Shown in pieces: positions 60,778-64,000 of a stretch of 64,000 bases of DNA. The stretch's first letter is position 1. The number at the start of each line of letters is the position of its first letter. The position numbers were made by a program, and so were the translations under genes. The stretch covers positions 256,001 to 320,000 of the forward strand of contig CAWGVS010000005.1 in assembly GCA_963826115.1 (NCBI GenBank), written 5' to 3'. Origin of the DNA: an uncultured Candidatus Rokubacteria bacterium (lineage in GTDB: Bacteria > Methylomirabilota > Methylomirabilia > Rokubacteriales > DASRDR01). The notes under the pieces were generated by a model. That model ran no database searches, had not been told where the DNA came from, and saw only the letters and a program-made list of their open reading frames with translations.

Positions 60778-61024
60778 CCCTGGGCCGGGGGATCCTTCCC
60801 GCTCGGGGTCCGCCGGACGTTCCGGTGGGGCCGGCCGGGAGGTCGAATACTCCGTGAGATTCACGCGTTTCGGTCCATCCGACGGCGGCCGTCGGGGCCT
60901 GATCGACGCCTGCCCGGGCCCTCGCGCCGGGTGGCCGGGGCCGGATCGGCTACTATCGATGCATGGAGGCAGGTCGACCCCGCGGGGGTGCCTTGCGCGG
61001 GCCGCTCGACTCGGGGCGCGAGCC

Positions 61025-62530
61025 GTGACGCCCCCGTCGCGGTCGGAGGAGCGCGCCGCCCTCCAGCAGGAGCTCCGCGAGCTCCGCACCGTCAACGAGC
61101 TCATCCGGACGCTCACCTCGACGCTCGAGCTCCCGGAGATCCTCCGAATCGTCCTCGACCGGCTGAAGAACCTGACCCAGGCTGAGGCGCTGTCGCTGAT
61201 GCTGTACGACGCGGAGCGCGACGAGCTGGTGTTCGCCGCGACCGAAACGCTCCGCGAGAACGCGGCGGTCGGCCTTCGCCTGCCGCCGTCGCGGAGCCTT
61301 GCCAGCTGGGTGGCGCGGAGCGGCGAGAGCGCCATCGTCAACGACGTGGAGCACGACCCGCGCTTCTACCCCGAGATCGACCGGCTCACTCGCTTCACCA
61401 CGCGCAACCTCCTGGCGGTGCCGATCCTCCGGCAGGGCCGCCTGATCGGCGTCCTCGAGGTCGCCAACCGCTACGGTGGCATCGCCTTCGAGGAGGACGA
61501 CCGATTGCACCTCGAAGGGCTCGCGCGGGAGGTCGGGGAGGCGTGCGACCCCGACCGGCTCTGCCACGACGCGGACGCGATGAGGGACCTCCTGTCCCGG
61601 GCCGTCCGGACGGCCCCCAGCGAGGCCGCGGCCCTCCTGCTCCTCGATCCGTCCGGACGGGAGCTCGTGTTCCAGGCGTCGCGCGCCATCCAGCCCGGCA
61701 TGATCGACGGCCTCAGGCTGCCCACGACCCGCGGGATCGCGGGGTGGGTCGCGCGGCATCGCGAGGCTGTCCGGCTGGACGACGTTGCCGCCGATCCGCG
61801 GCATTTCGCGGGCGTCGGCACCCAGACGGGCCTCGTGCCGCGGACGATGATCTGCGTGCCGATGGTCAGCAAGGGCGAGCTGCGCGGCGTGATCCAGGTG
61901 ATCAACAAGGTCGACAACTCGACGTTCACGGAGACGGAGCTCGGCGTCGCCCAGACGCTCGCCGACCACGCGGCGATCGCGATCGAGAACGCGTCGCTCT
62001 ACCGACAGGCGTACCTGGCGTCGATCACGGACGACCTGACCGGGCTCGGCAACACCCGGCACTTCCATCGGAGCCTCGCGGAGGTCATGGCGCGCGCCCG
62101 GTCGGTCTCGCTCGCCGTGCTCGACCTCGACAACTTCAAGGCGGTGGTCGACCGGTGGGGACATCTCGCGGGCTCTCGGGCGATTGCGCAGATCGGCCGC
62201 ACGATCGGCGCGCTGGTCCGGCCCGGCGACGTCGCGGCCCGCTTCGGCGGCGACGAGTTCGTGATCGTCCTCCCCGAGACGGACGTCGCCGAGGCGCAGC
62301 GGGTCGCGGAGTCGATCCGCAAGGCCATCGAGGCTTGCCAGACCCTCGAGGGGGAGGACGTCGATCTCTCCCGGGTCACGGCAAGCGTGGGTGTCGCCTC
62401 GTTCCCGGCGCACGCGGCCGACGGCGAGAGCCTGTTCCGGCAGGCGGACGCCGCCATGTACACGGCCAAGCGGCAGGGCAAGAACCGGGTGACGGTCGCC
62501 CCGCCCCCGGAGGCCGCCACCGGGGCCTGA
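61025..62530 (+). CDS. Diguanylate cyclase with tandem GAF domains
   Basis: Two GAF repeats, DDLTGLGN, DLDNFK, I-site RPGD, GGDEF. Confidence 0.95.
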   Translation: MTPPSRSEERAALQQELRELRTVNELIRTLTSTLELPEILRIVLDRLKNLTQAEALSLMLYDAERDELVFAATETLRENAAVGLRLPPSRSLASWVARSGESAIVNDVEHDPRFYPEIDRLTRFTTRNLLAVPILRQGRLIGVLEVANRYGGIAFEEDDRLHLEGLAREVGEACDPDRLCHDADAMRDLLSRAVRTAPSEAAALLLLDPSGRELVFQASRAIQPGMIDGLRLPTTRGIAGWVARHREAVRLDDVAADPRHFAGVGTQTGLVPRTMICVPMVSKGELRGVIQVINKVDNSTFTETELGVAQTLADHAAIAIENASLYRQAYLASITDDLTGLGNTRHFHRSLAEVMARARSVSLAVLDLDNFKAVVDRWGHLAGSRAIAQIGRTIGALVRPGDVAARFGGDEFVIVLPETDVAEAQRVAESIRKAIEACQTLEGEDVDLSRVTASVGVASFPAHAADGESLFRQADAAMYTAKRQGKNRVTVAPPPEAATGA

Positions 62531-62570: not shown

Positions 62571-62732
62571 TCAGCCGCCGTGATCGTGGGGCTGGGGCTG
62601 CGCCTGTCCGAGGGTCACCCTGAGGCAGCCGTAGCAGACCGGCGCCGCGCAGTCCGGGCTCTCGCAGAGCTCGCAGCACTCGACCTCGTCCCCGCACTCC
62701 GAGCACCGGTAGGCGAGGGGGCGATCGCTCAC
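62571..62732 (-). CDS. Small Cys-rich putative metal-binding protein (53 aa)
   Basis: GTGA overlap with the upstream stop. VSDRPLAYRCSECGDEVECCELCESPDCAAPVCYGCLRVTLGQAQPQPHDHGG. Confidence 0.7.
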   Translation of the reverse strand: MSDRPLAYRCSECGDEVECCELCESPDCAAPVCYGCLRVTLGQAQPQPHDHGG

Positions 62733-63457
62733 AACTTTCCTCCCGAGCCGGGCTCCGCGGGCCGCGCGTCCCCGAGCTCCCGCGCGACCCTGACCGCGTC
62801 CTGGCGGCGGAGCAGGCCGACCAGCCTCCCGTCCGACGTCGTGATCGGCACGCTCGTCAGGTCGTGCTCGGCCATGACTCTCGCCATCTCCTCGATCGAG
62901 ACGAACGGGCGGAACGTGCTGGGTCCCGGACGCATGGCGCGCTCGATCCGGAGGTCCGGCGCCGCTTCGAGCTCCGCGGCCCGCAGCAACCCCAGGACGA
63001 TCCGCTGGGCGTTGATCGCCACGCAGGCGTCCCAGCCGGCCGCACGCACCCGGGCGCGCACCTCGCCCAGCCGCTCGTCGAGCGAGCAGGTCGGGACGTC
63101 CGCTCGAGCCACGGTTCCCGCGCGAGGGCGGGCGGCATTGGCGCCCTCCGAGGGCAGTCCCGCCGCCAGCCAGTCGAGCTTGCCGGCGTCGTAGTCGTAG
63201 ACCCGCGTGAATCCGAAGCGCTCGAGCCGCCACGCGGCCCGTGAGCTGAGGTCTCAGGCCGAGTCCCAGCAGTAGACGACGATCGGTCGGCCGGGATCGA
63301 GCGCCTGGCGGGCCTCGGCCTCGAGCTTGCGAAGCGGCAGGCTCATGGCCCCTGGCAGATGGTCCTCTTCGTATTCCTTGGCGGGGAGGACCTCCACGAT
63401 CTGCGCGCCGGCGCGCATGAGCCGCCGGACCTCTTCTCGACCGATCGACTCCGGCAT
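62729..63457 (-). CDS. Rhodanese-CBS fusion, probable selenoprotein (UGA=Sec at codon 68)
   Basis: GGAGGAGG SD. HLPGA...IVVYCWDSA[TGA 63256-63254]DLSSRAAWRLERFGFTRVYDYDAGKLDWLAAGLPSE continues in frame into the CBS pair. Confidence 0.85.
63220..63246 (-). promoter_or_regulatory. Putative bacterial SECIS hairpin
   Basis: GCTC-AC-GGGCCGC-GTG-GCGGCTC-GAGC, starting 7 nt after the UGA. Confidence 0.68.
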
Positions 63458-63521
63458 GATGGTCGCCTCCTCCCAGACGCGCTGGGTCGCTCGAGGAGCC
63501 TTGCCGCTCAGCGTAGCCCGG

Positions 63522-64000
63522 TCAGCGCCACTCGGGGTAGGTCTGGGGCGCGAGCTCGTCCGCGCCCCGGCCCGCCCAGTCGAACTCGCGCATCCGGGGC
63601 CACATGCGCTCGCCGCCGGCCTGGAGCGCGTCGAGGATCGCGCGCTCGTCGGCGGCCAGGACGCGGCCGCCGTCCACCACGACGCGCCCGTCGACCCAGA
63701 CGCGGTCCACGTCCTCGGCGGTCGCGTTGTAGACGAGGTTCTTCACCGGGTCGCGGAGCGGCGTCATGCCGAAGGAGCGGCCCTTCCAGAGGACCAGGTC
63801 GGCCCTCGCGCCCGGCGGCGATGCGGCCGAGGTCGTCCCGGCCCAGCGCGCGCGCCCCGCCGAGGGTGGCCGCGTCGAAGACGTGGGCCGCGGTCGTGGC
63901 CTGGGTGTTGCGCTCCATCGTCTTCGACAGGACCGCCGCCCAGCGCATCGCCTCGATCACGCTCTGCGGGTTGGTGTCGGTCCCGAGCGACATGTTCACG
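63522..64000 (-). CDS. Amidohydrolase family protein, C-terminal part (apparent +1 frameshift near 63817)
   Basis: LGTD, ATLGGARALG..LGRIA / PGARADLV, DVDRVWVDGRVVV. Confidence 0.85.

Follow-up and report, generated by a model that had tools for sequence, protein, structure and literature searches.

A rhodanese-CBS gene of Candidatus Rokubacteria that very likely encodes a selenoprotein with a Cys-x4-Sec active-site loop

Introduction

Does the TGA codon that interrupts a rhodanese-like reading frame in an uncultured Candidatus Rokubacteria bacterium end a short peptide, or does it encode selenocysteine (Sec, U) within a single longer protein? The codon lies in the window, the 64,000-nt stretch of DNA analyzed here (assembly GCA_963826115.1, contig CAWGVS010000005.1, positions 256,001 to 320,000 of the forward strand). 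An original prediction, made from these letters without database searches, read the region as a hidden rhodanese-CBS selenoprotein with a C-x4-U loop. The analysis supports this prediction, and each of the tests that had been proposed to refute it came out in its favor: judged from sequence comparison, the locus is very likely a genuine rhodanese-CBS selenoprotein gene, single and intact, of 242 residues. Comparison of related genes has shown UGA68 to be a conserved and selected codon with a conserved RNA hairpin downstream. What the protein does is a separate question, for which graded answers are offered below.

Reading frame of the rhodanese-CBS gene

Translated with TGA as U, the coding sequence occupies positions 62729..63457 of the minus strand, with 242 codons and a terminal TGA stop (62731-62729). 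Translation table 11 yields two open reading frames (ORFs) here, one of 67 aa at 63457-63254 and a GTG-started one of 127 aa at 63112-62729; once the first TGA is read as U, one 242-aa frame runs from M1 to L242 and is ended by the second TGA. The in-frame TGA (63254..63256, minus strand) is codon 68, assigned to Sec from its conserved column, and its context is VVYCWDSA-U-DLSSRAAWRLERFGF. The codon of Cys63 (63269..63271, minus strand) is at the canonical position of the rhodanese catalytic cysteine and supplies the first residue of the active-site loop, C-W-D-S-A-U-D, in which Sec lies five residues past this cysteine. The coordinates, residue numbers, loop sequence and GUG-loop hairpin of the original prediction are all correct, the gene being on the minus strand, and its claim of one protein split by a TGA in the middle of the rhodanese domain holds, as the Pfam match to PF00581 (residues 8-98, 63164..63436, minus strand; 54.3 bits against a cut-off of 22.2) crosses the TGA.

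The alternative in which the TGA is a true stop, leaving an N-terminal peptide of 67 residues and a CBS protein with its own start downstream, is the way in which table 11 ORF calling and public pipelines read the locus, and 90 of the best 120 database matches are pieces of 142-178 aa. A stop here would cut the rhodanese domain in mid-fold, yet the domain match continues beyond it, the residues right after the TGA (D69, S71, R73, A75, L78) are invariant, and the predicted full-length structure is confident over the junction. The downstream starts chosen by gene callers vary among relatives (MSPRAAW..., MGF..., VYDY..., MPSEG...), and homologs with a Cys codon continue through the column as a single protein. 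Termination at codon 68 is accordingly a highly improbable reading.

Conservation of the TGA column

Pooling and de-duplication reduced 261 related loci to 182 distinct 90-nt contexts. In these, codon 68 is TGA in 177, TGC in three, TGT in one and CGA in one, while codon 63 is a Cys codon in 182/182. Homologs had been expected to carry TGA or Cys at position 68 with conservation on both sides, and this was found, with 177 TGA and 4 Cys forms among the 182 and strong conservation to either side. D65, D69 and R73 are invariant, and S71 likewise, though it counts 174/182 among distinct contexts; purifying selection acts on the gene on both sides of the TGA. Within the phylum, full-length relatives are present in 19 of 251 genomes at 45-78% identity, and all 21 full-length matches have an in-frame TGA at the same column, within the motif YCWDSA-U-DLS or YCHDxQ-U-DLS. 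For Sec forms across phyla, protein identity to the window gene is 45-82%.

Wider scans gave the same picture. A scan of one genome per species yielded 400 relatives, the best 80 of which comprise 77 TGA, 1 TGC, 1 TGT and 1 CGA forms, and these 80 loci are labelled Actinomycetota, Dormiibacterota, Chloroflexi, Bacillota, Streptosporangiaceae and Rokubacteria metagenome-assembled genomes (MAGs). A second scan, with Cys-form protein queries, found at least 522 relatives among species-representative genomes, and 78 of the 80 best have TGA. When metagenomes were scanned with a Cys-form query, the 80 loci comprised 78 TGA and 2 TGC forms. At the DNA level Sec forms stand to Cys forms at approximately 40:1. 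One TGA-form locus with a bacterial-type hairpin comes from a MAG that bears the name of an archaeon, Candidatus Nitrosopolaris; its contig is probably mis-binned.

Protein databases give a different composition, with column 68 in 30 full-length proteins being C in 20, W in seven, R in one, S in one and a gap in one. The seven W residues would suit a variant code or near-cognate read-through in which UGA specifies one of the standard amino acids (Trp, Cys or Gly). Most likely these residues come from TGA codons that were translated as Trp, because TGG occurs at codon 68 in 0/182 distinct DNA contexts and the W-bearing proteins match clades whose genomes carry TGA. Both this gene and the neighboring GGDEF gene terminate in TGA, and the non-TGA homologs have Cys codons, which is the hallmark of Sec/Cys pairs. 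With a SECIS-type hairpin conserved at the nucleotide level and complete Sec machinery in the genome, both described below, decoding as a standard amino acid has very little probability, less even than termination.

The weakest explanation, an error of assembly or sequencing, or else a pseudogene with a recent nonsense mutation, could draw on an apparent frameshift near 63790-63810 in the upstream amidohydrolase gene, as the assembly may hold errors, but it is effectively refuted by purifying selection on both flanks and by the same TGA in 177/182 distinct sequences from independent assemblies and several phyla, which is thus not unique to this assembly. Logan contigs of public runs X1 and X3 and of the RNA-library run X19 also bridge the TGA site; the X19 contig is 251 nt long with 16 differences, and none of the differences listed falls at 63254-63256. 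Across all Logan contigs no public run contains half of the sampled words. An RNA library may contain DNA.

The SECIS hairpin

A core of the bacterial selenocysteine insertion sequence (SECIS) type is found at 63223..63241 on the minus strand, with an 8-bp stem, a GUG apical loop (63233-63231) and a UGA-to-loop distance of 20 nt. The hairpin, CGGGCCGC-GUG-GCGGCUCG, begins 12 nt past the UGA; its 19-nt core folds at -13.1 kcal/mol (z = -3.63), and 0/200 shuffles fold as well, confirming that the GUG-loop hairpin noted after the TGA is real. A wider stretch of 73 nt, in this G+C-rich DNA, folds no better than its shuffles (z = -0.62). The bacterial SECIS model, as given in section 5 and the Fig. 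2 legend of PMC13188914, has a loop of 3-9 nt, an upper stem of 4-16 bp, a G within the first two loop positions, a UGA-loop distance of 16-37 nt and a minimum free energy (MFE) of at most -7.5 kcal/mol; the window hairpin agrees with these published values in loop, stem, spacing and energy. A search of Rfam (E up to 10) gave two chance matches only, mir-1199 and P37, neither of which comes anywhere near its gathering score.

In the 177 TGA contexts of the family, the loop is GUG in 160, GGC in 13 and GUC in four, with G first in 177/177; it always lies 20 nt past the UGA, and the MFE is -7.5 kcal/mol or lower in 176/177. Recurrence of one TGA column with one hairpin in 177 of 182 distinct sequences far exceeds what chance would give. 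The stem barely varies because the hairpin sits within conserved coding sequence, and with so few stem changes synonymous variation becomes the decisive test of RNA structure. Among the 21 phylum orthologs, 4 of the 65 conserved columns with 4- to 6-fold degeneracy have a codon entropy below 0.3 bit, and these four form the hairpin arms: Ala74 (GCC in 20/21), Ala75 (GCG in 21/21), Arg77 (CGG in 21/21) and Leu78 (CTC in 21/21). Outside the hairpin 0/60 columns fall below 0.3 bit and none below 0.63 (permutation, 0 of 100000). In 124 distinct Sec forms across phyla, codons 74, 75, 77 and 78 have the lowest entropies among 75 columns, at 0-0.14 bit, the next-lowest column being at 0.56 bit and the median outside the hairpin at 1.6. 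The case for an RNA structure, as drawn from these alignments, is the freezing of synonymous sites together with the fit to the consensus.

By established bacterial Sec decoding, SelB with Sec-tRNA(Sec) would bind this hairpin on the translating mRNA, and Sec would be inserted at UGA68 in place of termination.

Selenocysteine machinery

The genome (6.24 Mb, 12 contigs) possesses the genes that such decoding calls on. It has a tRNA-Sec gene (selC; 76.9 bits, ARAGORN anticodon TCA), which selA (503.7 bits) and selB adjoin, and a selD (393.2 bits; G000:C5:560187-564104) with one in-frame TGA of its own, at locus base 1531, in the Sec context GAG-U-ACK. The SECIS geometry of selD is the same as that of the rhodanese-CBS hairpin, with UGA + 20 nt, an 8-bp stem and a GGA loop. 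All four genes that the original prediction had named for checking are therefore present, and selA was also found in 22/24 other TGA-form genomes tested.

Several observations weigh against the selenoprotein reading. In two of those 24 genomes selA is missing, namely G150, which is 95% complete, and G251, a partial MAG of 1.6 Mb. The gene is near-universal in the phylum (215/251 genomes, with the unpublished G113 and G074 counted in), and therefore co-occurrence is uninformative there. RNAalifold recovers 8 upper-stem pairs in a nearly invariant stem, with two-sided compensatory changes in 0/12 pairs and variation only at one pair, as A-U (13), G-U (7) and C-U (1); compensation is thus missing from the support for the structure. 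The control offered by Cys forms is split 2:2, as loci L096 and L130 have changed hairpin codons and have lost the G-initial loop, while L213 and L214 keep the hairpin exactly; two extra scans for Cys-form DNA returned almost only TGA forms. The CGA (Arg) form, L069 (also L152), keeps an intact hairpin as well, and this form, with the R and S found in database proteins, suggests that the chalcogen may be dispensable in some lineages. Finally, Sec at residue 68 is a prediction from gene sequences.

Two side observations concern these rare forms. L213 and L214, both TGC forms on metagenome contigs, and L069/L152 seem to have switched codon very recently, leaving a "fossil" SECIS. In G257, the genome of the TGT form L130, all that is found of selA is two fragments, at model positions 61-180 and 189-257, which may reflect decay of the Sec trait.

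Predicted structure

The AlphaFold2 model, built with 28 sequences, has a mean predicted local distance difference test (pLDDT) of 92.9 and a predicted template modeling score (pTM) of 0.82, and DSSP assigns a strand to residues 59-62, a loop to 63-69 and a helix to 70-80. In the rhodanese fold the loop between strand and helix is the active-site cradle, which the catalytic cysteine begins. As loop 63-69 corresponds to this cradle, the model would place Sec68 at its +5 position, beside the retained Cys63. For the rhodanese half, Foldseek found PDB chain 3nhv_D at a root-mean-square deviation (rmsd) of 1.6 A over 106 columns (TMt 0.71). The domain scores above the Pfam gathering threshold, matches the fold and has Cys63 opening the loop, and the protein can be placed among the rhodaneses on these grounds.

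A CBS pair (Bateman module) follows at residues ~112-228 (62774..63124, minus strand), delimited by Foldseek matches to complete CBS pairs. Pfam PF00571 scores only the second motif (residues 174-225, 62783-62938; 40.2 bits, cut-off 24); two tandem motifs are nevertheless recognized by fold search, and assignment as a CBS pair stands although Pfam scores one. The half aligns over 115-141 columns to MgtE, AcuB, CBSX1/2, ST2348 and MJ0922, with TMt 0.74-0.86 for chains that consist of the CBS pair only. Matched pairs are nucleotide-bound (MgtE with ATP, AcuB with AMP, ADP or ATP, CBSX2 with AMP), and by this resemblance the pair may be of the adenine-nucleotide-binding kind. Foldseek returned no solved chain spanning both the rhodanese and the CBS half (best TMq 0.46).

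Proposed function

From the folds, a nucleotide-regulated sulfur/selenium transferase with a Cys63/Sec68 pair, as first proposed, is plausible. The mechanism put forward here, tentatively and with somewhat less than even confidence, is a redox-active Cys63/Sec68 loop that would perform persulfide or perselenide chemistry under control of the CBS pair. Cys63 could carry a persulfide or perselenide, or pair with Sec68 as a selenenylsulfide, with Sec68 serving as a fast resolving or relay nucleophile. The rhodanese domain would then be a redox-active sulfur/selenium transferase or a persulfide reductase and not a plain thiosulfate sulfurtransferase, and a ligand bound at the CBS pair would tune its activity.

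Two observations count against this mechanism. The loop is acidic, D65 and D69 both being invariant, and thiosulfate-binding rhodanese loops are generally unlike an acidic loop of this kind. There are also no conserved neighbor genes, the best shared cluster occurring at 5/100 loci, and the window's own neighbors are not conserved beside orthologs; because the neighborhood is not conserved, the functional assignment comes from the domains alone.

The main rival to redox transfer accepts a genuine selenoprotein that is not a transferase: the acidic Cys/Sec loop would serve to bind soft metals or metalloids, or to sense redox state, and the CBS pair would be an output or dimerization module, giving a regulatory or detoxifying protein like the rhodanese-fold arsenate reductases. 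It can draw on a loop with two invariant Asp and zero basic residues, on cysteines widely kept in the CBS half (a C124-like site in 159/182 contexts and a C145-like site in 137/182), on the missing sulfur-metabolism neighborhood, and on a small Cys-rich ORF that directly follows the window gene with a GTGA start/stop overlap. That ORF is conserved at no other locus, however; an invariant R73 stands at the start of the loop helix, no metal-binding family matches the protein, and its closest structures are plain rhodaneses and CBS pairs. A sensor or metal(loid)-binding role is therefore a possible but rather unlikely reading, ranked after redox transfer.

The small ORF itself (window 62571-62732, minus strand) encodes 53 aa with nine Cys in CxxC-type spacing, its GTG start overlapping the TGA of the selenoprotein gene; it has no Pfam match and is absent beside the other 99 orthologous loci.

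A bolder version of the redox-transfer proposal would see in this nearly Sec-obligate family (~97% TGA; Cys forms rare and seemingly recently derived) a selenenylsulfide-based catalytic Cys-x4-Sec center that constitutes a chemically new class of rhodanese, for example a nucleotide-gated persulfide or polysulfide reductase, or the missing selenium-delivery protein that supplies SelD with activated selenium. This is an improbable suggestion, a little more so than the sensor role.

Distribution and annotation

The family is widespread in MAGs whose labels are Actinomycetota, Dormiibacterota, Chloroflexi and Rokubacteria, and soil metagenomes are the source of many of these; it is a family mostly of soil and other environmental MAGs and is nearly always Sec. 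Selenoprotein-rich organisms are described in parts of PMC13188914 as predominantly anaerobic. That standard gene callers would miss the full gene had been anticipated and is reflected in the fragments among the best 120 database matches, 88 of which, by their printed N-termini, begin just past the TGA column. The fragments are mostly named "CBS domain-containing protein" or "Mg/Co/Ni transporter MgtE". A family that is large in species-representative genomes is in this way systematically split in two by annotation, and hundreds of records would be put right by a curated model that makes an exception for Sec. It is unusual in that Sec forms far outnumber Cys forms and in that the catalytic Cys is kept with selenium added beside it. 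As a small soluble model, the protein could be used to study the contribution of selenium to persulfide chemistry and the control of a redox domain by a CBS sensor.

Neighboring genes

Upstream of a Shine-Dalgarno-like GGGAGGAGG (63466..63474, minus strand), read from the sequence 8 nt 5' of the ATG at 63457-63455, lies an amidohydrolase gene (window 63508-64000, minus strand) with a frame change near 63790-63810. Amidohydro_1 matches the frame of 63999-63802, and a plausible C-terminus (...TYPEWR) is in another frame at 63767-63522; the change is either an indel error of the assembly or a real frameshift. On the other side is a convergent neighbor (window 60854-62530, plus strand), a GAF-GAF-GGDEF diguanylate cyclase gene, the adjoining gene whose TGA terminus was mentioned above.

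Comparison with known rhodanese and CBS systems

A 2026 selenoproteome review (PMC13188914) lists, in the parts available, five rhodanese selenoprotein forms with the motifs UxxS, UxxG, CxU, UxxG and UxxxxU. Neither "CBS" nor "CxxxxU" was found in those parts, and no form listed there has C-x4-U or a CBS domain; "CBS" was likewise not found in the available text of a 2022 review (PMC9312934). The deep-Sep and BSepDB papers have neither "rhodanese" nor "CBS" in their main text, with supplementary tables, which could list the family, lying outside this scope. No paper was found that joins "rhodanese", "CBS domain" and "selenocysteine", within a search outside which some relevant studies fall that could list the family. 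The protein passes no model of NCBIfam release 20. Within the selenoprotein lists checked, as far as their available parts go, the remark that this architecture is uncharacterised holds.

Of the five forms, form 1 (PF00581, UxxS, WP_010941598.1; PMC13188914) resembles the window protein as a rhodanese with Sec, and U68-D-L-S71 fits UxxS. The review's table, in the part available, shows no CBS domain and no upstream Cys for form 1, a comparison made by motif description only. Short relatives were also searched for, and the 11 matches were all fragments of the rhodanese-CBS family itself.

TsoB (form 5, NF045694), a rhodanese/DsbD fusion-like protein with UxxxxU, shares two chalcogens with x4 spacing in a rhodanese domain. 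In TsoB both positions are Sec and a DsbD-like membrane part is present, whereas the rhodanese-CBS family has an unvarying Cys63 (182/182) and a soluble CBS pair. The window protein matches the TsoB hidden Markov model weakly over residues 21-112, at 23.6 bits against a cut-off of 805, and falls outside that family; a TsoB above cut-off was not found in 41 related genomes.

LYCAU (form 3, NF041203, CxU) is similar in that the catalytic Cys is kept with Sec nearby in the active-site loop, but its Sec is at +2, as opposed to +5 here, and it has no CBS pair. At 20.6 bits against a cut-off of 115, the rhodanese-CBS protein is not a member. The same genome has two further rhodanese selenoprotein candidates. 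One (G000:C5:920000-921600, TGA at locus base 772) has Sec at the catalytic position (VVLY-U-ACPHH), and one-TGA rhodanese matches like it occur in many genomes of the genus; the other (G000:C10:570700-572000, minus strand) has the LYCA-U motif of NF041203, preceded by a hydrophobic, membrane-like N-terminal region.

On the CBS side, CBSX1/2, AcuB and the cytosolic domain of MgtE share the fold of residues ~112-228, and several of them hold AMP, ADP or ATP; none is fused to a rhodanese domain. For the rhodanese half the best match (E = 1.4e-9, rmsd 1.6 A) is the Bacillus halodurans protein BH2092 (PDB 3nhv/3o3w), a rhodanese from structural genomics, of unknown function, for which a literature search under BH2092, 3NHV and 3O3W gave only a fragment-library methods paper naming 3NHV, and no functional study. 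Its loop, YCWGPAC, has the same C-x4-C/U spacing as YCWDSAU, and Cys63 aligns with its first Cys; it differs as an all-Cys, single-domain protein whose loop is without the two Asp.

The available text of PMC9312934 states a convention by which subfamilies are told apart by their Sec sites or motifs. Set apart from LYCAU by its Sec site, and from form 1 and TsoB by their descriptions rather than by Sec columns, the rhodanese-CBS family would on that convention be a further subfamily of rhodanese selenoproteins, because its Sec site or motif differs from those listed.

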